The notes below the pieces were generated by a model. That model did not search any database. It was not told where the DNA came from and worked only from the letters and a program-made list of their open reading frames with translations. A DNA stretch of 64,000 bases from an uncultured Planctomycetia bacterium. GTDB lineage: Bacteria; Omnitrophota; Gorgyraeia; VGKH01; JBHPFN01. Location of the stretch: NCBI GenBank assembly GCA_964406665.1, contig CAYOSQ010000003.1, positions 186,558 to 250,557 on the forward strand, given 5' to 3'. A program made the position numbers and the translations under genes. Shown piece by piece: positions 44,021-55,661 of the stretch. Position 1 is the first letter of the stretch. Every line of letters starts with the position of its first letter.

Positions 44021-45073
44021 GTGGAAAACGACAACTTATATAAAATGCTATTAAAGAATATAGAAGCATGCGATGAAGCTTGTAAGAAGCCTAAAGATCA
44101 AATGCTGTTAGGCGAAGGGAGTTTAAATGCAGATGTTATGTTTGTTGGCATAGCCCCTAATATGTCTTTTGATGGTAAGGTAAATAGGAGCGTCTTCGGA
44201 GAATATAGTCGAGCAGGAGAAAAAGTAAGACCAACAATGGCGGCACTGGTTGAGAAATATAGCAAAATAAATAATAGTCAGGAAATACTATTTTGGTTAA
44301 CTAATATAATAAAATGCGGCTGCGGAAAAGACGCGTTTGCTAGCAATATGAAAAGATGCGATAAGTTCTTGAGAGAAGAGATAGGTATAATTAAGCCGAA
44401 AGTCATAGTTTTATTTGGGCGTAAAATTATAAAACATTTCCTAGGTGAAGTGATGGTGCATGGTAAAATTTCAAGCTTAGATAATCAATACGCATGCGTA
44501 CATTCATATCATCCCGCAGCTAGGGGTGGTTTGTTTGAGAATGGGACAGATAAGTTAATGGATGCAGTTGTTGAAGCGATGGGGGAAGGAATTCATAGGA
44601 GAGATGGTTTAAAGGACGAATTAGTTAACAAGAGCAATGAAAAGATACAAGGGGTTATTGATGCGAGACAGCGAAGATCTCATAAGAAGAAAAGCAGAGT
44701 AATTATAACTTCAGCTGAAATGCTTCTTTTGAGCGCTGGTAGTCATAATGCAAGAAGCTTATTTAATAATTTCTCAAATAGAATTAAATCAAAATTTCCT
44801 TTGGTTTATAATGAACCGCATACAGATTCTTTTATTTTCTATATTAATTACGAGGGTAGACAGAAAAGACTATTTGATGTTCATGTAAGCAATACAGGTT
44901 TGAGGGTGCATTTGATGAATAGGAAGAAAGAAATTCAAGATCCTTTTAAAATATGCACTCTTAAAATGAGGAAGAGTGGTGCGACACGCATGGAAGTGAA
45001 AATTGAGAGAGTCGATGATATTGATAGACTTCTGTTTGTTGTTGAACAAATATATAAAATTAATACAACATAA
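44021..45073 (+). CDS. Uracil-DNA glycosylase superfamily (family 4/5-like, Fe-S) protein with a C-terminal extension
   Basis: LGEGSLNADVMFVGIAPN (motif A-like), SYHPAARGG (motif B-like) and Cys residues placed as in 4Fe-4S UDGs, plus ~170 extra C-terminal aa. GTG start with an aaggag RBS. Confidence 0.55.
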   Translation: MENDNLYKMLLKNIEACDEACKKPKDQMLLGEGSLNADVMFVGIAPNMSFDGKVNRSVFGEYSRAGEKVRPTMAALVEKYSKINNSQEILFWLTNIIKCGCGKDAFASNMKRCDKFLREEIGIIKPKVIVLFGRKIIKHFLGEVMVHGKISSLDNQYACVHSYHPAARGGLFENGTDKLMDAVVEAMGEGIHRRDGLKDELVNKSNEKIQGVIDARQRRSHKKKSRVIITSAEMLLLSAGSHNARSLFNNFSNRIKSKFPLVYNEPHTDSFIFYINYEGRQKRLFDVHVSNTGLRVHLMNRKKEIQDPFKICTLKMRKSGATRMEVKIERVDDIDRLLFVVEQIYKINTT

Positions 45074-45129
45074 TAAAGATGAGCTTTGTGATTTTTTGAG
45101 AAATAAAAGTCTGAGAGGTAGTATAAAAA

Positions 45130-46707
45130 ATGGACGACAGTTTTAAAAATTATGACTCTTTAGAGCAAATAATAGAGGACAGGCAAGACCTTTTTGTCCC
45201 TCAGCGGAAGAAATATCTCACCAAGTCTAAATATATAAACGCTCTTCAATGTCACAAGTATTTGTGGATGAGGTGCAATAGGCCTGAGGATATTCCGGAG
45301 CCAAGTAAAAGCTTACAACACATATTTAGCGTTGGTAAAGAAGTTGGTCGGTTGGCTCAGCAAAGGTTTCCCGGAGGCATAAATATTTCAGAGGAAGATT
45401 TTTTTGAAAATTTAAAGACAACAGAGGCGCTATTGAAGCAGCCTGACCGTAAGCCGCTTTATGAGGCGGGAATCTCATCAGGACGTCTTTATGCACGGGC
45501 AGATGTTCTTTGTCCAGTTGACAATGAAGCATGGGATCTAATCGAAGTGAAATGCTCAACCTGCTCAAAAGAGATCAAAGATGTCTATTATCATGATATT
45601 GCCTTTCAGAAATATTGCTATGAAAAGTCCGGGTTAAAGATTCGTAAATGTCTTCTATTGCATATCAGCAAAGAATATATTCGTGATGGAGAGATTGACG
45701 TTAATGATTTTTTTACATTGCAAGATTTAACCGAGCCTGTAGGGAATTTGCAAGAAGGAATCGATGAAAATGTCGAGGGATTTTTGAAGATAATTGACAT
45801 GGCAGCACTTCCAAATTGTTCTATTCATGAAGGTTGCCGTAAGCCTTATGAATGTCCCCTTATAGAGGAGTGCTGGAAGTTTTTACCTCCTTTTAATATT
45901 TTTCAATTATATGGCATGCGATGGAAGAGTCGTTTTGATTTCTTCGATAAAGGATTAAGAGACATAAAAGACGCTCCTAAGGATGACAAAAAAATAAAAG
46001 AAAAACATTTAATGCAAATAGAAAGCGTTGAGACTGGGGAGCCTCATATCGAGTCTCTGGGAATTTCTGATTTCTTAAAAGATTTACAATATCCAATTTA
46101 TTATATGGATTTTGAGACAATGTTTGAAGCAATTCCTCCGTTTAATGGGACGAAGCCGTATCAGCAAATACCTTTCCAGTTTTCAGTTCATGTTCAAGAC
46201 AATCCGGGAGGAGATTTAAAGCATTTCTCGTTTTTATGGAAAGAGTCAAGTGACCCGAGAGAGAGTTTTATTCGAGAATTAAAGGATTGTTTAGGAGGTC
46301 AAGGAAGCATCGTCGCGTATTATTATAGTTTTGAGAAGAGTCGCTTAACGGAATTAGCAGAATTGTTTCCAAAGTATAAGGATTGGGTTGATTCTATATT
46401 GAATAGAATGATTGATCTTCTTGGGCCGTTTAAGAATTTTCATTATTATCACGCTTCTCAGAAGGGCAGCGCCTCTATAAAAAAAGTTTTGCCTGCAATT
46501 ACCGGCAAGGGATATGAAGGAATGGAAATTTCAGGTGGAGGCGAGGCAAGTTTGGAGTATGCGAGAGTGACTAATGGAGATGCCTCAGAAGATGAAAAAA
46601 ACGCAGTATATAGCGCTTTAGAAAAATATTGTACTTTAGATACTGAGGGGATGGCGTGGATTGTAGAGAAGTTGAGGAAACTAAGCAAAGAAACAAGTGG
46701 AGGCTGA
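45130..46707 (+). CDS. DUF2779-like protein: Cas4/RecB-like PD-(D/E)xK nuclease N-domain plus C-terminal domain
   Basis: D...DLIEVKCS...Y PD-(D/E)xK-like core with flanking cysteines, and a C-terminal YYMDFETMFEAIPPF...QIPFQFSVH block typical of DUF2779. Confidence 0.5.
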   Translation: MDDSFKNYDSLEQIIEDRQDLFVPQRKKYLTKSKYINALQCHKYLWMRCNRPEDIPEPSKSLQHIFSVGKEVGRLAQQRFPGGINISEEDFFENLKTTEALLKQPDRKPLYEAGISSGRLYARADVLCPVDNEAWDLIEVKCSTCSKEIKDVYYHDIAFQKYCYEKSGLKIRKCLLLHISKEYIRDGEIDVNDFFTLQDLTEPVGNLQEGIDENVEGFLKIIDMAALPNCSIHEGCRKPYECPLIEECWKFLPPFNIFQLYGMRWKSRFDFFDKGLRDIKDAPKDDKKIKEKHLMQIESVETGEPHIESLGISDFLKDLQYPIYYMDFETMFEAIPPFNGTKPYQQIPFQFSVHVQDNPGGDLKHFSFLWKESSDPRESFIRELKDCLGGQGSIVAYYYSFEKSRLTELAELFPKYKDWVDSILNRMIDLLGPFKNFHYYHASQKGSASIKKVLPAITGKGYEGMEISGGGEASLEYARVTNGDASEDEKNAVYSALEKYCTLDTEGMAWIVEKLRKLSKETSGG

Positions 46708-46725
46708 TATGAATCGGAGGTTGAA

Positions 46726-47943
46726 ATGTTAACAGCATTGGTTGTTGTCGTTGTTGTAATTAATATCGTGATATTAATTATATTGCTCACGCGTAATTCG
46801 GATACGAATCTTATTAAGTTTGAAGGCAGCATCAGAGATGAAGTGTCAAAAAATCGCGAAGAAATGTCTAAAACACTAAAAGACTTCAGCGATTCATCTC
46901 TAAAGCAGTTTTTAGGTTTAACGCAAATAAACGAGCAGAAGCTTGAGAATGTGCGTAAGACAATTGAAGAAAGGCTTAAGTCTTTACAGGATGACAATTC
47001 TCAGAAGCTCGAAAAGATGAGAGAAACAGTCGATGAAAAATTACACAATACTCTAGAGAAGCGATTGGGTGAGTCGTTTAAATTGGTCAGCGATCGACTT
47101 GAATCGGTTCAACAGGGCCTTGGAGAAATGCAGGCATTGGCAACAGGGGTAGGCGATCTTAAAAAAGTATTAAGCAATGTTAAAACAAGAGGAACATTGG
47201 GTGAGATTCAGCTAGAAACATTATTGGATCAAATACTGACTCCGGATCAGTATGCGAAAAACGTCGCTACCAAGAGTGGAAGTCGGGAAAATGTTGAGTT
47301 TGCCATAAAGTTACCAGGCAAAGAGGATAAGATTCTCTGGTTGCCAATAGATGCAAAGTTTCCCAAAGAGGATTACGAGCGCTTAGTAGATGCTCAAGAA
47401 CAGGCCAATCCCGATCTTGTAGAAGAATTAGGAAAGGCACTTGAGCAACGCATTAAGTCTGAGGCAAAAGATATCCAAAACAAATATATCGATCCACCAA
47501 ACACAACCGATTTTGGGATTTTGTTTCTAGCAACCGAAGGGTTGTATGCTGAGGCACTCCGAAGGCCAGGCCTATTTGAATCATTACAGAGAGAACACAG
47601 AGTTATACTCACCGGACCGACAACAATAGCAGCGTTATTGAATAGTTTGCAGATGGGATTTAGAACTCTTGCGATAGAGAAGCGCGCAAGTGAGGTCTGG
47701 AACTTATTGGGAGCGATTAAGACGGAATTCGCTAAGTTTGGAGATCTTCTAGTAAAAACACACAAGCAATTAGCAGCTGCCAGCAATACAATAGAAGGTG
47801 CAACAAGGAAAACAAGAACGATTGAAAGAAAATTAAGAGATGTTCAGGAGCTTCCAGTTAAGGAGTCAGCTAAATTATTAGGCAAAGTTGAAGATTTCGA
47901 TATGGAAATTGATACAGAAAATAATTCAGAAGAGCAAGAGTGA
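46726..47943 (+). CDS. rmuC: DNA recombination protein RmuC
   Basis: N-terminal TM, coiled coil, and a C-terminal RmuC nuclease-like domain (TRGTLGEIQLETLL...WLPIDAKFP). Confidence 0.85.
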   Translation: MLTALVVVVVVINIVILIILLTRNSDTNLIKFEGSIRDEVSKNREEMSKTLKDFSDSSLKQFLGLTQINEQKLENVRKTIEERLKSLQDDNSQKLEKMRETVDEKLHNTLEKRLGESFKLVSDRLESVQQGLGEMQALATGVGDLKKVLSNVKTRGTLGEIQLETLLDQILTPDQYAKNVATKSGSRENVEFAIKLPGKEDKILWLPIDAKFPKEDYERLVDAQEQANPDLVEELGKALEQRIKSEAKDIQNKYIDPPNTTDFGILFLATEGLYAEALRRPGLFESLQREHRVILTGPTTIAALLNSLQMGFRTLAIEKRASEVWNLLGAIKTEFAKFGDLLVKTHKQLAAASNTIEGATRKTRTIERKLRDVQELPVKESAKLLGKVEDFDMEIDTENNSEEQE

Positions 47944-48067
47944 GGATTAAAGAAGATTGTCATTTTTGTACTTATAGAGATACGGTTAGGGATATTGTGT
48001 AAAATATGAAGCACATGACAAATGTTTTATAGTTGAAAATAAGACAATATAAAGGTATGCTAATGAG

Positions 48068-48237
48068 GTAGCTAGATGGCTTTTAGCTTAGAACATCACG
48101 GTGTTTCACCGTGGACGCGATAAAGGCTAGACTACCCTTTTCGGATCTCATAGTCGCGTATTTGTGTGGTACCCAAACACGCGAATATGACATCCGGGCA
48201 CTTTGAAAGATTAGTAAGGAAAAAGCCATCTAGCTAC
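48068..48237 (+). ncRNA. Retron msr-msd non-coding RNA flanked by a1/a2 inverted repeats
   Basis: A 17-bp perfect inverted repeat, gtagctagatggctttt (48068-48084) and aaaagccatctagctac (48221-48237), brackets a structured region. That region has an msr-type hairpin (cacggtg-tttc-caccgtg) and a long imperfect msd stem, and it lies immediately upstream of a retron-type RT on the same strand. Confidence 0.7.
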
Positions 48238-48257
48238 ACTCGTATTAAGGGATTTTT

Positions 48258-49766
48258 ATGTCATTAGACAAACTAAAGAAAATAGAAGAATTGATTTCTT
48301 CTAAGGAACATAAAGATAGATTAAAATCTATATCCTTGATAAAAGAATTGTCAGTTGATGAAGTAAAGACATTGTTAATTAAGTATGCAACTTTTTGGGA
48401 TAAACAATTCAAAAGAGAATTTTCTAAAGAGGCACTTGATCAGTTCGGAAAAGAAATTATCGAGTCCATAGTTAATTTAGTAAAGAACGAAAATCTTCCC
48501 ATAAAATTCACGATAAATCTTCTGAGTAAATTCGATGATCCTTTCGTTATTGATTTCATTGCAACGTACCTTTCGCATTTTCGAACAGATATTAGGCTTG
48601 AATCTCAGAGGATCATCTTGGAATACAGTAGCGAATATGCAGTTTTTGTGCAATGGTGCAATGATTTAAAGGATTTCAAATTATTGCAAAATCTACTGGA
48701 TAAAATTCCAGTTGAAAATATCGCTAAATATATAGATCGTTTAAACGATTGGGACCGTAATGCTTTTTTAGGTAAGCCTGCCACTAAAGAATATTTAGCG
48801 CATAGAAAACTTACCAATCTATTTGCAGTCATCGATGATTCTACTGAAGGTAGGCTTTTGGTGAGAAAAACAGAATCGTCAAAAATATATTTAGAGAGTA
48901 TTTCAGAGCGACTTCAAGCACCAAAAGGACTTATAGGATGGGTGGTTAGAAATTGGGATGCTGTTGATTCTCTCTATGCGACCTTTACAATTCCAAAAAA
49001 AAGTGGAGGCCAGCGCTCGATATCTTCTCCACCAGATAAACTTAAGTATGTGCAGGAGCTAATTTATAAAAATGTGTTGTCTAAAGCTTTGCTCCATCCA
49101 TGTTGCCACGGCTTTATATCGGGACGATCCATAATAACCAACGCCGAATATCATACAAATAAGGATGTGGTAGTCAATGTGGATATAAAAGATTTCTTTC
49201 CATCCATATCAGCTTCGAGGGTTTATGGAGTATTTCAATCTCTCGGATTTAACAAGCATGAGGCAAGACTGCTAACACGTATTGCAACACGGAATAATTG
49301 TTTACCACAAGGAGCCCCAACAAGTCCTATAATAGCAAACATAACATGTAAAAGACTTGATAGTAGGCTTTCTGGGTTAGTTAAAAAAATGGATGGTAAA
49401 TATAGTCGATACGCAGATGATCTTACCTTTAGTGGCGATGAAAAAATATTAAAAGTGATTCCTCGTATTTATAAAATTATAGGCGCCGAAGGATTTCTTG
49501 TCGCAATAGAAAAAACTAGAGTTACACGAAAAGGAAATCGTCAGGAAGTAACAGGCTTAACGGTAAACAAGAAAATCTCGATACAACGAAAAAGGCGCAA
49601 GAATCTAAGGGCTATTATTCATCATTTCAAAACAAGTAAAAGTATTCATTGGAACGGGAAAGATTTATCTGTTCAAAGCCTAAAAGGGCACATTGCCTTT
49701 TTAAAGTCAGTACATCCTGAGACCGCGAGTAGCTATAATGATGTAATTAAGAAAAGTAAAAAGTGA
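48258..49766 (+). CDS. Retron-type reverse transcriptase with a ~240-aa N-terminal extension of unknown function
   Basis: RT motifs are present: SGGQRSISSPP, HGFISGRS, VNVDIKDFFPSI, LPQGAPTSPIIAN, YSRYADDLTF. The retron-specific NRQEVTGLTVN (VTG) motif is also present. The RT domain begins near residue 245, preceded by an alpha-helical-looking domain. Confidence 0.8.
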   Translation: MSLDKLKKIEELISSKEHKDRLKSISLIKELSVDEVKTLLIKYATFWDKQFKREFSKEALDQFGKEIIESIVNLVKNENLPIKFTINLLSKFDDPFVIDFIATYLSHFRTDIRLESQRIILEYSSEYAVFVQWCNDLKDFKLLQNLLDKIPVENIAKYIDRLNDWDRNAFLGKPATKEYLAHRKLTNLFAVIDDSTEGRLLVRKTESSKIYLESISERLQAPKGLIGWVVRNWDAVDSLYATFTIPKKSGGQRSISSPPDKLKYVQELIYKNVLSKALLHPCCHGFISGRSIITNAEYHTNKDVVVNVDIKDFFPSISASRVYGVFQSLGFNKHEARLLTRIATRNNCLPQGAPTSPIIANITCKRLDSRLSGLVKKMDGKYSRYADDLTFSGDEKILKVIPRIYKIIGAEGFLVAIEKTRVTRKGNRQEVTGLTVNKKISIQRKRRKNLRAIIHHFKTSKSIHWNGKDLSVQSLKGHIAFLKSVHPETASSYNDVIKKSKK

Positions 49767-50013
49767 AAAGGTGCTTGTTAAAAAAGACAGCCAGGTTTTT
49801 ATCTTTAAATGCAATAACGGACACGGCGAGAAAGCAGAGATAGAAGAAATTTTTGAGAAAATGCTTCAAAATTTTCAATTCACGGAGGAAGGTTTGAATT
49901 AGGGCTTGCGACTGGCGACAGCCAGGAGCAGCACCGAAAGGCAGCTTAGCTTTAATGGATTGTTATTGCAGGCAGTCCTGGAGCAAAGCGAAAGGGATTG
50001 AGGTGAGGGGGCG

Positions 50014-50568
50014 ATGATTTATTTACCATTACTGGTTGGCATCGGCATCATTATTGCTAAGGTGATTTATCGCATGAGGAAAAAGAAGGCGATTGCTCCG
50101 AGATGGCTCAATAGGTTTTTGACTATTTGTGCAACAGTCTGTTTGATTTCTTCACTCATTCCAATACTTTTCACTGCATGGTTTTTTAGTTCTATGTCAA
50201 TGTCTGCAAGTAAAGTTTTTCAAAGATATATTGCTGACCCTATTCCCACCACTGTACGCATTGTCTATGGTAAGGGTGTTTCATGGCAAGGATATTCAGC
50301 CCAAGTAGTTTTTACTACTGATAAAAAGACTTTTAGCGAACTTTTTTCGGATTACCAAATCTTGCCTTTTGAGTGTGACTATCCTACTGTCAATCGCTGT
50401 TGCGATACTGAGATATATTATGACAATAAACTTTTCAAAGAGGATTTAAGCAAAGTGTCTGGACTTCAATGTTTTTATAAAGAGGGAGATGTTAAGCGAG
50501 GACAAAATTCTGTAGTTTATTGGGACAAGGATAATAACAAAATATTCTTTAGAAGTAGTGGTGGATAA
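50014..50568 (+). CDS. Two-TM membrane protein (candidate retron effector)
   Basis: Two N-terminal hydrophobic helices, then a ~120-aa soluble Cys-containing domain, directly downstream of the retron RT. Confidence 0.5.
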   Translation: MIYLPLLVGIGIIIAKVIYRMRKKKAIAPRWLNRFLTICATVCLISSLIPILFTAWFFSSMSMSASKVFQRYIADPIPTTVRIVYGKGVSWQGYSAQVVFTTDKKTFSELFSDYQILPFECDYPTVNRCCDTEIYYDNKLFKEDLSKVSGLQCFYKEGDVKRGQNSVVYWDKDNNKIFFRSSGG

Positions 50569-50651
50569 TGAGTGTATTTAAACGAAATAATATTTATAAA
50601 AAATAAACTAGAGATTGAGCATAGCAGCTTCTTTGATATAATATAAACATC

Positions 50652-50725
50652 TGCGCCCATAGCTCAATTGGATAGAGCACCAGTCTTCGGAACTGGGTGT
50701 TGCAGGTTCGAGTCCTGCTGGGCGC
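50652..50725 (+). tRNA. tRNA-Arg (anticodon UCG)
   Basis: Cloverleaf with gcgccca/tgggcgc acceptor, anticodon stem ccagt/actgg, loop ctTCGga, T-arm gcaggTTCGAGtcctgc. Confidence 0.8.
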
Positions 50726-50738
50726 GTAGATTATTAAA

Positions 50739-51672
50739 GATGAAAAAGACTTTTCTTATAATATTCTTATTATTTTTTGCGACGACGTGTTTTGCTCAAG
50801 AAAGAGTAGTCGCCGCAAGAATGCAATATAACAACCTGCCAATTAACCTCATAATTACTCCTGAGAAGAGAGTTTTTGTTTTAGGGGAACCAGTAATGGT
50901 AAAAACCGAACTCAAAAATAATTCTGATAAAGAAGTAATGATCGTTATTCCTGCAGATGGCTCTGAGGCTAAAATGAGATATCCGCATTTTTATTTTGAA
51001 TTCACAGGTAAAGATGCAAAGGCTGTTAAGAACAAAGCCAGGTGCGGAGTTGTGGACCCTCTTGTGCTAGATTCTTTTGCAGTTGTTCCCTCCGGGGAAG
51101 GAATTGCATTAAGTTCAATGTGGTCAGAAGGAGATATTAGCAAATTTATGGATATCCCTACAGGAGAATATAGAGTTCATTGTTTTTACTCAACAGATAC
51201 AGAAGATGAAAAATCTTGGCATGGTAGGTATTCTGATGAAGAATGGAAAAAACGTGATAAGAATGAATTCTGGGCGAAACGGGATGAAGAGATGAGGAAG
51301 ATAAATCAACTGCTTAAAAAAGTACCCAGAATGAATCTAAAATCTAATTCTGTCAGGATAAAGATTGTCGATAAGTTAGAGTCTTTCAGTGATAAATATT
51401 ACCAGATAAAAGAAGCAATGAGTAGAGTTGATGTTGGGAAATTTCTAGGTGAGCCAGCGCGAAAAAAAATTGCAGTTTTACCAAGGGGACCATTTTACGG
51501 TCCACAAGAAGGCCTGGTTAAAATTCTAAAGCCTGGAAGTGAATATGAAGAGTGGGAGTACGAATCTGATAATATTATTTATTTTATTTGGTTTGGATCT
51601 GTTGGAGATGTTAATTCAGCAAACTGGAAAGTAATCGACGTGGGAGAATATCCTAAGGGCGCTGTATTTTAA
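50739..51672 (+). CDS. Secreted hypothetical protein
   Basis: Signal peptide (MKKTFLIIFLLFFATTCFAQ). I moved the start out of the tRNA to the ATG at 50739. Confidence 0.6.
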
Positions 51673-51690
51673 ATCATACATAAGGGTAAA

Positions 51691-52392
51691 TTGATAATGA
51701 AAAAGATATTTTTGATTTTAGTAGTTTTATTGATGTTTTCTGTCAGCAACTCTTTAGCTCAAGATGCAATAAAGCCACACAGGATAAAGAATTTCTTTCC
51801 AAAAGGAGAAGCTCTTCTTGATGGATATTTAGTCGATTATTCCCAATGGAAGCGTTATTCGGCCTTTAATAAAGCCTTATTTATCAAAGAGTATATTATG
51901 GAGTTAGAAGATGAATTTAACGTTGTTATAAAATTCAGACGCTGGGGATTGGGTCCTTTTGATAAATATATTGATGAAAAGATAAAGAAGGAAGAAGATA
52001 AGATTATTGTTTATAATTTTATTAGAGAGTTTCTTAAAGAGCAGTGTGCTTTTCCTTCAACGGAAAGTGGTTGCGATGATTTATACAAATACGATACTAA
52101 TGATGTTCCGGAAGTATTCTTTTTTCCGATTAGCCTGTCTCGCTGGGATGGTACAAAAATAGATGTTATGTCGTGGGGTAAGCTTGATTCACTTTTGAAA
52201 GAGAAGTTTATGCTGGAGTATTCTAAGGTACTTGAGATAAAATATGATACTACAATTAAGTTTGATAAATATGTTTATCTTGCTATTTTGGATGGCATGG
52301 CAAAAGAACCAGATGCAATGTGGATGACCGATTTATTCGAGCGTGCATTAAAAGAAGATGATATAATCAAAGAAAAAGGAGAGAAAGAATAG
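51691..52392 (+). CDS. Secreted hypothetical protein
   Basis: Signal peptide; no recognisable motifs. Confidence 0.55.
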   Translation: MIMKKIFLILVVLLMFSVSNSLAQDAIKPHRIKNFFPKGEALLDGYLVDYSQWKRYSAFNKALFIKEYIMELEDEFNVVIKFRRWGLGPFDKYIDEKIKKEEDKIIVYNFIREFLKEQCAFPSTESGCDDLYKYDTNDVPEVFFFPISLSRWDGTKIDVMSWGKLDSLLKEKFMLEYSKVLEIKYDTTIKFDKYVYLAILDGMAKEPDAMWMTDLFERALKEDDIIKEKGEKE

Positions 52393-52393
52393 A

Positions 52394-52882
52394 ATGGAGA
52401 ATATTACAGCGCTTAGAAAGATAAATAAATATTCATTTAGACTTTTGGTAATTGTTCTTTTTGCTTGTTTAAGTTTTATTGGTTGTTCTTCAAAAGCAAA
52501 GAATGTCTACAATATAGATCTTGACAATGATAGAAGAGAAGAAGTTGTAAAGGTCAAAGGTTTAAAGGTTGTGGTTTCCAGAAAAAACGGTAAGGTAATC
52601 GGGAAGATTGACCTTTTGGACTATTCTGAAAAGATAGAATTTGTTGATTTAAACAAGGACGGTAAGAAGCAGATAGTTCTTTGGGCACAGGGAGACGAAG
52701 GTTTTTCTCAAGGGATAGTTATTTATGGTTTGATCAATAACAAGCTTTTGGAGATATTCAGACTTGATGTAGATTCTCAGATCGAAGTTGATTTTGTTTC
52801 TACACCCCCTGTAATCATTGGAGGTAGTACTAGGTGGATATGGGATGGCTCTAGATTCAAGGGTTCCTTAGAAAATTTTTAA
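52394..52882 (+). CDS. Lipoprotein with an FG-GAP/VCBS-like DxNxDG motif
   Basis: Lipobox (FIGCSS) and DLNKDGKKQ. Confidence 0.5.
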   Translation: MENITALRKINKYSFRLLVIVLFACLSFIGCSSKAKNVYNIDLDNDRREEVVKVKGLKVVVSRKNGKVIGKIDLLDYSEKIEFVDLNKDGKKQIVLWAQGDEGFSQGIVIYGLINNKLLEIFRLDVDSQIEVDFVSTPPVIIGGSTRWIWDGSRFKGSLENF

Positions 52883-52922
52883 AATTTTATGAAGAATAAT
52901 TTATTTCAAGGAGGTTGTTAAG

Positions 52923-53348
52923 ATGAGAGCAATAGCACTACTAATTGTTTTTTTAATGTTTTGTGTAAACGTGTATGCTGAGGATTCATCTGGTTTGTTG
53001 ATTATTAAAAATCCCAATCTTTCTGCTGCAGTTGTAAGCAGTAAAGTTGATATGGGAAAGATGGATTATGCGTACAATAATCCTACAACAGTTGATAAGA
53101 GCGGTAATTTTTATTTTTGTAGTTCAGAGAATAATCGATTAGATTCTTTATGGAAAGTAAGCAGGGTCAATTCTAAAACCGGGAACATTGATGAAATCTG
53201 CAGGCTTGATTTAAGCTCTAATAAGTATAGGTTTATCCGCTCAATTAACTATGTAGATTCCGGGAAACTCTATATTTGGTTGGCAACAGAAAGAGCACGT
53301 TCAGGAGAATGGCAGGGGGCATTAGTAGAAATTTCCGGACTTCAATAA
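52923..53348 (+). CDS. Secreted hypothetical protein
   Basis: Signal peptide. Confidence 0.5.
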   Translation: MRAIALLIVFLMFCVNVYAEDSSGLLIIKNPNLSAAVVSSKVDMGKMDYAYNNPTTVDKSGNFYFCSSENNRLDSLWKVSRVNSKTGNIDEICRLDLSSNKYRFIRSINYVDSGKLYIWLATERARSGEWQGALVEISGLQ

Positions 53349-53563: not shown

Positions 53564-53980
53564 ATGAAAAGGTTCGAAATCATAGAACACACCGCTGATA
53601 TTGGCATAAAGATATTCGGCAGTGATTTAAAAGAACTGTTCTGCAATGCTGCTGCAGGGATGTTCGATATTATAGCCGATTCAAAAGAAGTCAACCGAAA
53701 GAAGCATATTAACGTTGAGGTTAAAGCTGATAATATTGAAGAGCTTTTGGTAAACTGGTTAACTGAGCTCTTGTTCCATTTCAATGCTAATTTTATTATT
53801 CTTAAAGAATTTTCTATAACTGAAATATCACAAAATAATATTAAAGCTGTAGTCTCAGGTGAAAAAATCGATAAAAACAAGCATAGTATAAATACAGAGA
53901 TAAAGGCAGTAACTTATCATGAGCTTAAAGTAGAAAAAAAGGATTTTGGCTGGAACGTACAGGTTATCTTCGACGTGTAG
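53564..53980 (+). CDS. Archease
   Basis: MKRFEIIEHTADIGIKIFG... archease N-terminal signature, upstream of rtcB. Confidence 0.85.
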   Translation: MKRFEIIEHTADIGIKIFGSDLKELFCNAAAGMFDIIADSKEVNRKKHINVEVKADNIEELLVNWLTELLFHFNANFIILKEFSITEISQNNIKAVVSGEKIDKNKHSINTEIKAVTYHELKVEKKDFGWNVQVIFDV

Positions 53981-53990
53981 GAGGAATTTT

Positions 53991-54203
53991 ATGGCAAGTT
54001 GGGTTACGGTTCACACAACAAATGATGAAGCTGAGGTTAATTTAGTCAAAGGAATATTAGAGGAATATGGAATAAATTGTATTATCGAAAGCTCAAAACA
54101 TAGCCCTTGGATAACAGCACCATTGTTTAATCAGTTTGAGTTAAAAGTTTTGAAAGAGAAACTTGAAGAAGCTAAAGAAATAATTAAAACCGCAGGAGAT
54201 TAA
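53991..54203 (+). CDS. Small conserved protein (DUF2007-like)
   Basis: WVTVHTTNDEAEVNLVKGILEEYGI motif. Its start follows a ggagg RBS after the archease stop. Confidence 0.5.
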   Translation: MASWVTVHTTNDEAEVNLVKGILEEYGINCIIESSKHSPWITAPLFNQFELKVLKEKLEEAKEIIKTAGD

Positions 54204-55661
54204 ATGGCAGAGGTTTGGCAGGGTACGCTAAACAAGATTGATGATTTTCGATATGAGATCCCTAGGTCTTATAAGCAAGGAATGCGTGTCAGGGGTTTGA
54301 TATATGCGGATGATAAGTTGATAAAAAACATCCGTCATGATAAGGCAGCTGAACAAGTTGCAAATGTAGCTTTTTTACCCGGGATTGTCGGTAGCTCTTT
54401 AGCAATGCCGGATATTCACTGGGGCTATGGTTTTTCGATTGGTGGAGTTGCTGCAACTGACCCTGAAAACGGTGGTGTAGTTTCTCCGGCGGGTGTGGGT
54501 TATGATATTAATTGCGGCGTGCGGCTGCTTAGAACTAATTTAGAGTATGATGATATAAAAGATAAAATTGAAGATCTGACCTATGCGTTGTTTAACAATA
54601 TTCCTTCAGGCGTAGGTTCAAAGGGAGATATTCGCTTATCTTATAATGATGAAAAGAAGATTTTAGTAAATGGTGCTAAATGGGCTGTTGAAAATGGATA
54701 TGGTGCTGCAGAGGATTTAGAGGCTACAGAAGAATTTGGCGCAATAAAGGGCGCAGATCCTTTAAGTGTATCGGAGAGAGCGATTAAAAGAGGCAAGGCT
54801 CAGTCTGGAACACTTGGTTCAGGAAATCATTTTTTAGAAGTACAAGTAATCGATAAAATATTTGATGAAGAAAGTGCAGAAGTTTTTAATCTTCGGGTTG
54901 GTCAAATAACAGCAATGATTCATTCTGGATCCCGTGGTTTAGGTTATCAGGTTTGTGATGATTTTGTAAAAAGTATGATAAAATGTATTAGTAAATACAA
55001 AATCAATGTTCCTGACAGGCAACTTGTCGGTGCACCGGTTAATTCGCCGGAGGCAGAAGCTTATATTTCTGCGATGAGATGTGCGGCTAATTATGCTTGG
55101 GCAAACCGGCAGTGTTTGATGCATTTAACAAGAGAAGTATTCCAGAAGATGTTCGGCAGAAGCTGGCGCGATATGGATATGCATCTGATTTATGATGTTG
55201 CTCATAATATCGCAAAATTTGAAAAACACAAAGTAAAAGGTAAAGAAAAGGTTTTATGTGTTCATAGAAAAGGCGCGACGCGTGCTTTCCCACCTGGACA
55301 TCCGGAGTTACCGCAAAAGTATCAAAAGACTGGTCAGCCGGTAATTATTCCGGGGGATATGGGGAGGAATTCTTATCTTCTTACAGGGACAGAAAAGGCC
55401 GCAGAAACTTTTTACTCTACTTGTCATGGTGCTGGAAGATTAAAGTCGCGCACTGCTGCAACTAAAGAGTTTGATGCGCAATGGCTTGTTAATGATTTAA
55501 AATCTAAGGGAATCTTTGTAAAGGCCTCAGGACGTGGTACTATATCAGAAGAAGCTCCGGGAGCCTACAAGGATGTAAACGATGTGGTTGATGTTGTACA
55601 TAATGCGGGAATTTCCCACAAGGTTTGCCGTATGCGGCCTTTGGGAGTAATAAAGGGGTGA
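54204..55661 (+). CDS. rtcB: RNA-splicing ligase RtcB
   Basis: 485 aa with conserved RtcB blocks (GYDINCGVR, HSGSRGLG, CHGAGR). Confidence 0.95.
   Translation: MAEVWQGTLNKIDDFRYEIPRSYKQGMRVRGLIYADDKLIKNIRHDKAAEQVANVAFLPGIVGSSLAMPDIHWGYGFSIGGVAATDPENGGVVSPAGVGYDINCGVRLLRTNLEYDDIKDKIEDLTYALFNNIPSGVGSKGDIRLSYNDEKKILVNGAKWAVENGYGAAEDLEATEEFGAIKGADPLSVSERAIKRGKAQSGTLGSGNHFLEVQVIDKIFDEESAEVFNLRVGQITAMIHSGSRGLGYQVCDDFVKSMIKCISKYKINVPDRQLVGAPVNSPEAEAYISAMRCAANYAWANRQCLMHLTREVFQKMFGRSWRDMDMHLIYDVAHNIAKFEKHKVKGKEKVLCVHRKGATRAFPPGHPELPQKYQKTGQPVIIPGDMGRNSYLLTGTEKAAETFYSTCHGAGRLKSRTAATKEFDAQWLVNDLKSKGIFVKASGRGTISEEAPGAYKDVNDVVDVVHNAGISHKVCRMRPLGVIKG

Follow-up and report, generated by a model that had tools for sequence, protein, structure and literature searches.

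A likely retron of a rare, seemingly unclassified clade with HEAT repeats fused to the N-terminus of its reverse transcriptase

The 64 000-nucleotide stretch of DNA analysed here (the window) was found to carry a locus that we consider likely to be a genuine retron of a distinct, rare and seemingly unclassified clade, in which the reverse transcriptase (RT) carries an N-terminal HEAT-repeat domain (HEAT-RT); by the same judgement the window copy is solo and the next gene, ORF184, is not its partner. The identification of the locus as a retron, made beforehand in a sequence-only reading of the same DNA, was upheld by an RT of retron lineage, by a noncoding RNA (ncRNA) bracketed by an a1/a2 inverted repeat and by the retention of this ncRNA in homologous loci. 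The elements of the ncRNA and of the region preceding it are as follows.

48033..48061, forward strand: candidate sigma-70-like promoter, TTGAAA-17-TATGCT (consensus scan, pattern match only)
48068..48237, forward strand: retron ncRNA (msr-msd), bounded by the a1/a2 inverted repeat
48068..48090, forward strand: 5' arm of the a1/a2 stem, 17 bp perfect, with two mismatches and a conserved CTTA
48091..48091, forward strand: candidate branching (priming) guanosine in a conserved TTAG(A), directly 3' of the stem
48096..48114, forward strand: conserved msr hairpin, UCACGGUG-UUU-CACCGUGG, with an 8-bp stem
48142..48196, forward strand: predicted msd stem-loop, the template of the msDNA hairpin, with 26-nt arms that are 85% complementary
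48214..48237, forward strand: opposing G (48214) and 3' arm of the a1/a2 stem, in a conserved GGTAAG context

The inverted repeat that had drawn attention to the locus (48068-48084 and 48221-48237) is perfectly complementary over its 17 bp and can be extended to 23 nt (48068-48090 and 48215-48237) at 91%. The ~170 nt of structured RNA claimed to lie between its arms were likewise borne out: the region 48060-48245 folds with a minimum free energy of -75 kcal/mol (z = -7.68), a value equalled by none of 200 shuffled sequences. The fold contains the short hairpin at 48096-48114, the long hairpin at 48142-48196 and the candidate G48091 at the end of the stem, and by analogy with retron biology this guanosine may be the branching residue. 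The promoter candidate ends 7 nt upstream of the a1 arm, in a region that is rich in promoter patterns (17 found versus 9.6 expected).

An ncRNA of the same architecture precedes the RT at the corresponding position in 8/8 homologous loci, each with an inverted repeat of 10-20 nt whose arms lie 125-142 nt apart and which ends 10-37 nt before the RT start. The distal a1/a2 arms show 26% identity between loci, yet they are complementary over 10-22 bp within each locus, so that pairing is kept despite the divergence of the arms. A long hairpin equivalent to the msd stem-loop occurs in all of the homologous ncRNAs. Alignment of nine ncRNAs identified TTAG(A), the msr hairpin and GGTAAG as the conserved core; the positions of G48091 and G48214 are invariant (9/9), and the 8-bp stem of the msr hairpin is kept in all nine loci with compensatory changes at two pairs. 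The corresponding motif was found in none of 80 non-HEAT retron loci, and the HEAT-RT clade has an ncRNA of its own. The covariance-model search that had been proposed as a check, run with Rfam on 47000-51500 at E <= 10, gave no retron match on the ncRNA, the output being a tRNA and chance matches. Scanning of metagenome contigs with the pattern TTAGAN{3,8}GGYGNTTCRCYRYGG proved to be too degenerate: nearly all of the 120 stretches retrieved were chance matches, only L124 and L192 being real. None of 12 stretches recovered from viral contigs with the ncRNA motif was followed by a HEAT-RT.

The RT gene and the parts of its product were delimited as follows.

48258-49766, forward strand: RT gene, an intact ORF of 502 aa, stop codon included
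48258..48830, forward strand: HEAT-repeat (alphaRep/PBS-lyase-type) domain of the RT protein, aa 1-191 (family profile and AF2 model)
48831..48878, forward strand: linker between the HEAT domain and the RT, aa 192-207, of low confidence (pLDDT <50 in both AF2 models)
48879..49766, forward strand: retron reverse-transcriptase domain, aa 208-502, with YADD, LPQGAPTSP and the VTG motif; the span ends with the stop codon

The ORF starts 20 nt past the end of the inverted repeat, as had been reported. Both motifs on which the earlier assignment of the RT was based were located: the retron VTG region NRQEVTGLTVN at aa 427-437 (49536-49568) and the retron-like motif 4, LPQGAPTSPIIAN, at aa 349-361; the YADD catalytic site occupies aa 385-388. 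The window RT scored 258.6 bits against the NCBIfam model retron_St85_RT (curated cutoff 235), and the best 25 of its 57 PADLOC matches were all retron RT models. On sequence grounds the RT is thus a member of the retron lineage. The closest solved structure is the RT of Retron-Eco1 (Ec86), with aa 237-487 of the window RT aligned at E = 6e-48. The two share this RT core and the general msr-msd logic; in contrast to the window RT, that of Ec86 (320 aa) is devoid of an N-terminal domain and is accompanied by an effector of the NDT type. The RT domain had been placed from about residue 245 onwards, which agrees with the Pfam RVT_1 match (aa 245-435) but not with the NCBIfam retron model, the alignment of which begins at aa 215. 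Together with the disordered linker predicted by AlphaFold (aa 192-207), this start sets the N-terminal extension at ~190-210 aa. A pTM of 0.50 means that the relative orientation of the HEAT and RT domains is not predicted. A supposed ORF of 45 aa that overlaps the end of the RT gene was dropped, as it contained stop codons.

The N-terminal part of the protein had been described as a helical domain of ~240 aa with no recognizable motif. A real, all-α domain was confirmed by an AF2 model (pLDDT 89.5); its length was revised as above, and it was recognized as a HEAT/alphaRep solenoid by means of a family profile. Searched against the PDB, this profile retrieved alphaRep proteins (E = 1e-21), and alphaRep/HEAT proteins were also the top Foldseek matches of the AF2 model. 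Pfam HEAT_2 was matched by 14/16 members of the N-terminal domain family and PADLOC HEAT-ARM_XIII by 10/16 (best E = 2e-5). The N-terminal 240 aa and 144 aa of the window protein itself gave no direct match in Pfam or PADLOC and the domain is 15-23% identical to the family members, so its identification as HEAT rests on the family profile and alignment together with the AF2 model. HEAT-repeat profiles cross-match any HEAT protein, and the HEAT-ARM_XIII match therefore indicates the same kind of repeat and not necessarily common descent. Residues R21, W47 and D48 are invariant in the family. The domain is fused to the RT in ~40 of the 52 best homologue clusters, so that it is no frameshift artefact and the N-terminal extension is real. 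The proposal of a new effector or sensor module has to be corrected in that the fold is a known one, a HEAT solenoid of the kind found in the accessory module of type XIII retrons. Since that module is a separate HEAT/ARM protein in type XIII, a docking scaffold is, by analogy, more likely than an enzymatic effector.

The current classification of retrons recognizes 13 types, which are distinguished by RT clade, ncRNA and effector. The best PADLOC model for the window RT was RT_XIII (326 bits), with a margin of only 40 bits over RT_III-A, and the alignment spans profile positions 143-423 only, leaving positions 1-142 unmatched; for bona fide type XIII RTs the scores are 508-640 bits and the alignments take in almost all of the profile. 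Type XIII retrons (Mx162, Mx65, Sa163 and Ne144) combine an RT of clade 10 with WH-SWIM and WGR/HEAT-ARM proteins, and the RT and the HEAT/ARM module co-evolve (Mestre et al. 2020, PMC7736814). The window locus resembles them in that a retron RT, N-terminally extended in both cases, occurs together with a HEAT/ARM repeat module, and in that an ncRNA whose a1/a2 stem and msd hairpin are both long lies upstream of the RT. The view of an RT with an N-terminal domain as atypical has to be narrowed accordingly: an extension alone is not unusual, because the bona fide type XIII RTs examined match RT_XIII from the first positions, with the ~140 profile positions ahead of the RT core included. What differs is that the HEAT repeats (~190 aa) are fused to the N-terminus of the window RT, whereas in type XIII they form a separate protein of ~1000 aa. 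No separate WGR/HEAT-ARM accessory gene was found in the window, and a SWIM/winged-helix (DEDE) protein is absent from the window flanks, from the 57 other ORFs and from nine homologous loci. The ncRNA arms of HEAT-RT loci are 124-142 nt apart, compared with 193-245 nt in the examined type XIII loci, from which the conserved ncRNA motif of the HEAT-RT clade is missing.

A neighbour-joining tree of RT domains placed the HEAT-RTs in a coherent clade apart from type XIII. Their nearest non-fused RT relatives belong to complete type XIII systems (WGR/HEAT-ARM_XIII, SWIM_XIII and RT_XIII); the comparison set consisted of the RT-domain matches listed in a search of genome contigs. In that profile search, carried out with the full-length alignment, the matches listed were to the RT domain only and none had HEAT.

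The HEAT-RT relatives also differ from type XIII in their partner. Among nine relatives with readable neighbourhoods, on which this adjacency rests, all nine carry an N6/N4 DNA methyltransferase directly after the HEAT-RT, at -4 to 62 nt from the RT stop in the eight relatives with DNA. A DUF1848 protein follows in three loci, and the DUF1848 proteins beside HEAT-RTs match PADLOC RTasDUF1848 at ~1e-27. The relatives include a locus of Fundidesulfovibrio soli (L086) and L090, a locus with DUF1848. The HEAT-RT plus N6/N4 methyltransferase family is defined here by three features: the fusion of HEAT repeats to the RT, the ncRNA motif specific to the clade and a methyltransferase gene that follows directly. 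Pairwise identities of the RTs and methyltransferases from eight loci showed no correlation (r = -0.03), so that co-evolution of the two is not supported. The partner is not obligatory, since P0044 (locus L228), an RT of the same clade, has neither HEAT nor methyltransferase while the ncRNA motif is kept.

In the window the methyltransferase is absent. A tblastn search of the whole 64 kb with the partner methyltransferases and DUF1848 gave no homologue and no remnant, and none of the 57 other window ORFs was recognized by PADLOC as SWIM, HEAT-ARM or type II MTase. The lack of a canonical separate effector had been noted before and was confirmed for the flanking genes, where neither Pfam nor PADLOC detected an effector of the NDT, ATPase/HNH or HTH kind; nor did Pfam, PADLOC and tblastn reveal an enzymatic effector among flanking genes or window ORFs. 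Having the HEAT-RT and the ncRNA motif and no methyltransferase, the window copy is an incomplete or partner-less member of the family, a 'solo' HEAT-RT plus ncRNA cassette. A partner in trans is possible, since the window represents 64 kb of a 252-kb contig.

It is unlikely that the cassette is the decaying remnant of a HEAT-RT plus methyltransferase retron that has lost its methyltransferase and with it its function. Such decay would be in keeping with a gene present in 9/9 relatives and missing here, with an exact RT sequence present in only one 90%-identity cluster and with a position that, in contrast to that of its relatives, is among housekeeping genes instead of in a defence island. 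Against it, the 502-aa ORF is intact and has all catalytic and invariant HEAT residues, and in the ncRNA neither the 17 bp of perfect pairing in the a1/a2 stem nor the conserved msr motif shows any damage. The want of any methyltransferase pseudogene fragment implies that the loss would have been clean or old, with the rest undecayed, and P0044 provides a partner-less member of the clade elsewhere that retains the ncRNA motif.

For the retron that we regard as likely, the following scheme is proposed. A promoter just upstream of 48068 would give a transcript in which the ncRNA is followed by the RT gene. The ncRNA would be closed by its a1/a2 stem (48068-48090 and 48215-48237), and its conserved msr hairpin (48096-48114) would be recognized by the RT. 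Synthesis would be primed from the 2'-OH of G48091 and the msd copied leftwards from ~48214, yielding a branched msDNA of ~70-85 nt that includes the 48142-48196 hairpin. The HEAT domain may act as a docking surface for protein or nucleic acid, as the fused counterpart of the type XIII HEAT/ARM accessory protein; in the relatives it would most plausibly couple the RT-msDNA complex to the downstream methyltransferase and sometimes to DUF1848. In the solo cassette of the window the partner might be encoded elsewhere, or the effector might have been lost. Any function in defence is conjectural.

More tentatively, and at somewhat less than even chances in our estimation, the clade may represent an undescribed retron type in which the HEAT/ARM module of type XIII has been absorbed by the RT and a beta-class N6/N4 DNA methyltransferase serves as the dedicated partner, either alone or together with a DUF1848 Fe-S protein. 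To our knowledge, none of the 13 retron types uses a DNA methyltransferase, and in the literature searched no retron with a HEAT fusion, a methyltransferase effector or a HEAT-RT/methyltransferase/DUF1848 gene set was found. If this reading is true, DNA methylation would be the means by which a retron acts or is read out, and the window copy would show that a core of HEAT-RT and ncRNA can persist on a chromosome without the methyltransferase; this would imply that a partner acts in trans or that the RT-msDNA-HEAT complex has a function by itself. The features of the clade (a fused HEAT domain, a conserved ncRNA of its own, a tightly linked methyltransferase and, in some loci, DUF1848) would, if confirmed, add a mechanistically different class of retron effector.

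The undescribed-type reading would also imply convergence with the methylase-RT-alphaRep-DUF1848 systems of UG25. UG25, UG35 and UG36 are systems of the UG/Abi RT family, and UG25 comprises an N-terminal methylase, an RT and a C-terminal alphaRep, plus DUF1848 (Mestre et al. 2022, PMC9226505). The wider HEAT-RT family shares with these systems the components RT, alphaRep domain and DNA methyltransferase and, with UG25, also DUF1848; the window copy lacks the last two. The window RT differs from those of all three systems in being of the retron lineage, with an msr-msd ncRNA, and not UG/Abi; the repeat domain of HEAT-RTs is N-terminal, whereas theirs is C-terminal, and the methyltransferase of HEAT-RT relatives is encoded by a separate gene, whereas theirs is an N-terminal fusion. 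A confirmed clade would thus link retrons and UG25, two unrelated RT lineages, by a common accessory toolkit. The HEAT-RT fusion moreover gives direct genetic support to the HEAT/ARM-RT contact in type XIII, which had been deduced from co-evolution (Mestre et al. 2020, PMC7736814). The partner-less window copy offers a natural test of the RT-HEAT-msDNA core acting alone, and retron-based DNA production is a field in which the compact ncRNA (~170 nt), with its well-defined and conserved msr hairpin, may prove interesting.

Two features were located downstream of the RT gene.

50014..50568, forward strand: ORF184, coding for 184 aa with two hydrophobic helices near the N-terminus; probably no component of the retron
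50652..50727, forward strand: tRNA-Arg(TCG), flanking element (Rfam match)

Retron-Eco6 (Ec48) is a type IV retron consisting of an RT and a 2TM effector. The window shows a similar order, the gene after the retron RT encoding a small protein for which two transmembrane helices are predicted, and the sequence-only reading had taken ORF184 for an Ec48-like partner. The next gene does encode a 2TM protein, with hydrophobic segments at aa 1-21 and 31-61; its ORF follows that of the RT on the same strand, and nothing else in the vicinity looks like an effector. It is nevertheless quite improbable that ORF184 is a membrane effector held in check by RT-msDNA. It is separated from the RT stop by 247 nt and has no match in Pfam, PADLOC or NCBIfam, and the window RT is not type IV-like, RT_IV being outside the best 25 of its 57 PADLOC matches, and has a HEAT domain where Ec48 has none. 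A single distant homologue of ORF184 (P0130) was found among the 5.8 billion proteins searched; its gene is flanked by ruvB and queH and is accompanied by neither an RT nor an ncRNA, which leaves the idea of an Ec48-like partner unsupported. The nine HEAT-RT relatives all pair with a methyltransferase and not with a 2TM protein, and ORF184 fits the local gene set, as the genes at 50740-53348 cannot be annotated either and have apparent signal peptides. ORF184 is probably unrelated to the retron.

Least probable of all is a role as retron effector for the upstream RmuC nuclease-family gene (46726-47943), which directly precedes the ncRNA on the same strand, with 124 nt between it and the a1 arm, and weakly matches the PADLOC model 'RT-associated RmuC' (1.8e-11), but which matches the housekeeping Pfam RmuC far better, end to end at 2e-77, is preceded by two other DNA-repair-type genes and is next to the RT in 0/9 homologous loci.

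The tRNA-Arg(TCG) beyond ORF184 is, by inference only, a possible integration landmark. The genes past it (50740-53348) are likewise without annotation, and N-terminal signal peptides are apparent in their products.

The window carries a genuine retron of a rare clade in which the reverse transcriptase is fused to an N-terminal HEAT-repeat domain (HEAT-RT); the clade is related to but distinct from type XIII retrons.

Features of the retron locus and its neighbours (window positions)
44021–47943, uracil-DNA glycosylase (UDG)–DUF5655 fusion, DUF2779 and RmuC genes
Ending 7 nt upstream of the inverted repeat, promoter-like TTGAAA-17-TATGCT (pattern match only)
48096–48114, short hairpin inside a1/a2
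48142–48196, hairpin with 26-nt arms inside a1/a2
48258–49766, + strand, RT ORF, 502 aa, starting 20 nt after the inverted repeat
aa 349–361 of the RT, motif LPQGAPTSPIIAN
aa 385–388 of the RT, motif YADD
aa 427–437 of the RT, motif NRQEVTGLTVN
50014–50568, ORF184, with two hydrophobic segments
50652–53348, tRNA-Arg(TCG), then four ORFs of 310, 233, 162 and 141 aa without a Pfam match
53564–55661, archease and RtcB RNA ligase, then seryl-tRNA synthetase (SerRS)

On its sequence the RT is a retron RT, as the sequence-only reading had it. It scored 258.6 bits against NCBIfam retron_St85_RT (curated cutoff 235), and the best 25 of its 57 PADLOC matches were to retron RT models only, led by RT_XIII (326 bits, spanning only profile positions 143–423 of 469) and RT_III-A (286 bits). 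The nearest solved structure was the Ec86 RT (E = 6e-48, aa 237–487). The proposed a1/a2 repeat, the outer arms of the ncRNA, is also real: 48068–48084 and 48221–48237 are perfectly complementary, and pairing reaches 23 nt at 91% (48068–48090 / 48215–48237). The RNA at 48060–48245 folded with an MFE of −75 kcal/mol against a shuffle mean of −43 ± 4.2 (z = −7.7), a value equalled by none of 200 shuffles; no Rfam model matched it.

Absence of the repeat from homologous loci, which had been named as a ground for rejecting the retron, was not found. In all eight homologous loci with DNA (L084–L090 and L092) an inverted repeat of 10–20 nt with arms 125–142 nt apart enclosed a long internal hairpin and ended 10–37 nt before the RT start. 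The nine RNAs, folded independently (MFE), gave one common architecture despite GC contents of 33 to 68%. Alignment revealed that the 5′ arm has a conserved (C/T)TAG(A/T) motif at its inner end, that the msr region has a conserved 8-bp hairpin (GGYGNTTCRCYRYGG) with compensatory changes in two pairs, and that GGTAAG is conserved on the 3′ side. The G of TTAG (48091) is invariant and is opposed by G48214, and the pair matches the retron hallmark of 'two opposing G'. The distal arms share only 26% identity between loci, with 10–22 bp paired within each locus. The motif was absent from 80 other retron loci searched, type XIII loci among them; judged from these comparisons, the ncRNA is a conserved family specific to the HEAT-RT clade.

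The region preceding the RT had been described as lacking any recognisable motif; it is real and conserved, but it is recognisable, and is securely assigned as a HEAT-repeat solenoid from the family profile and AlphaFold2. A search of 5.8 billion proteins returned homologues aligning along the whole length, for example P0002 (42% identity), P0004, P0005 and P0030 (from Fundidesulfovibrio soli), and R21, W47 and D48 were invariant within an 'HWDRxLR' motif in a 16-sequence alignment. A direct HMM search with the window's own N-terminal domain gave no match; the profile of the region matched designed alphaRep/HEAT proteins in the PDB (E = 1e-21), Pfam HEAT_2 matched 14 of the 16 family members, and PADLOC HEAT-ARM_XIII, the accessory protein of type XIII retrons, matched ten (best E = 2e-5). 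As HEAT profiles cross-match any HEAT protein, common descent with this accessory protein is put forward as a suggestion. The AlphaFold2 model of the domain was confident and all-alpha (pLDDT 89.5), with alphaRep/HEAT proteins as top Foldseek matches in the PDB. The full-length model comprised the solenoid (aa 1–191), a disordered linker (aa 192–207) and the RT, its pTM of 0.50 giving no prediction of their mutual orientation. Since the HEAT domain precedes the RT in ∼40 of the 52 best homologue clusters, a frameshift merger in the window is excluded. One homologue (P0018, L087 6001–8505, 834 aa) has an additional C-terminal cobalamin-binding module (B12-binding_2 plus B12-binding), an odd addition for a retron RT. 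We infer with good support a mechanism up to synthesis of msDNA, the retron's product; the HEAT domain might serve in docking, and the window retron might function in defence.

A neighbour-joining tree built on RT cores grouped the HEAT-RTs in one clade, with a few short sequences interspersed (one, P0003, is a 5′-truncated gene on a 2.1-kb contig), apart from the clade of bona fide type XIII RTs. Among the matches listed from reference genomes, the best RTs without the fusion (Chitinophaga, Corallococcus, Foetidibacter and Hyalangium) belong to complete type XIII systems, with a WGR/HEAT-ARM_XIII protein (∼1000 aa), a SWIM_XIII protein (∼550 aa) and an RT_XIII scoring 508–640 bits across nearly the whole profile. 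These three components define type XIII (Mestre et al., 2020; PMC7736814); the same study noted co-evolution of the type XIII RT with the HEAT/ARM protein. The window locus likewise pairs a retron RT with HEAT repeats, but it lacks three defining features of type XIII: a SWIM protein, a separate HEAT/ARM protein, and a match of the RT to the first 142 positions of the RT_XIII profile. Arms are 193–245 nt apart in the type XIII loci examined compared with 125–142 nt in the HEAT-RT relatives.

Nine homologous neighbourhoods were readable (loci L084–L092 and the P0002 contig), eight with DNA. In all nine an N6_N4_Mtase (PF01555, 276–297 aa) directly follows the HEAT-RT, at −4 to 62 nt in the eight loci with DNA, and in three a DUF1848 gene comes next. 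The methyltransferases share 45–62% identity and resemble type II and CcrM-like enzymes; RT–methyltransferase co-evolution, sought in eight loci, was not shown (pairwise identities, r = −0.03). The DUF1848 proteins match the PADLOC 'RT-associated DUF1848' model, which was made for UG25. UG25 is a UG/Abi RT that carries fused methylase and alphaRep domains (PMC9226505); its set of RT, alphaRep/HEAT, methyltransferase and DUF1848 is mirrored in the HEAT-RT loci, although the RTs are unrelated. The relatives' loci lie in defence islands, with BREX, type I restriction-modification, AAA_15 and Schlafen-like genes adjacent. A literature search for a retron with a methyltransferase or DUF1848 partner found none, and neither is mentioned by Mestre et al. 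(2020; PMC7736814). The broader HEAT-RT plus methyltransferase (± DUF1848) family appears undescribed and is the most interesting lead.

The window copy is a solo RT and ncRNA cassette without this usual partner: tblastn found no methyltransferase or DUF1848 homologue in the window, and none of 57 other + strand ORFs in it matched SWIM, HEAT-ARM or type II methyltransferase. Another RT of the clade, P0044 (335 aa; L228 4863–6008), lacks both the HEAT domain and a downstream methyltransferase, so partner-less members exist beyond the window; upstream it retains the msr motif specific to the clade (TTAGATTTTCATGGTGTTTCGCCATGG). It adjoins a type I restriction-modification system. Elsewhere in the window one of the 57 ORFs matches PADLOC mad2 of the MADS system (9.5e-17), its orthology to the HEAT-RT-linked methyltransferase being excluded by tblastn, and two match dCTPase (PADLOC).

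ORF184, a 184-aa protein suggested as an Ec48-like partner, probably belongs to the local gene set of the tRNA and the ORFs after it, not to the retron. It had no family match (Pfam, NCBIfam, PADLOC), and among the 5.8 billion proteins its one match beyond the members of its 90%-identity cluster (38% identity) is encoded between ruvB and queH, where neither an RT nor an ncRNA occurs. The 247-nt spacer from the RT is GC-rich and moderately structured (z = −2.8); between the RT stop and ORF184, 49895–50015 forms two hairpins (MFE −40.7 kcal/mol) without an Rfam match. Several of the four ORFs after the tRNA have apparent N-terminal signal peptides, and 50652–53348 may be a small accessory island.

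The retron lies amid housekeeping genes, FtsA also being present in the window, and all ORFs of at least 200 aa across the 64 kb are on the + strand. Directly upstream are three genes of DNA-repair type. RmuC weakly matches PADLOC 'RT-associated RmuC' and matches the housekeeping Pfam RmuC family end to end (2e-77); it is unlikely to be a retron effector, also because no relative has RmuC adjoining the RT. The glycosylase of the DUF5655 fusion belongs to family 4, and its C-terminus matches the PADLOC candidate PDC-S18 (1.7e-8).
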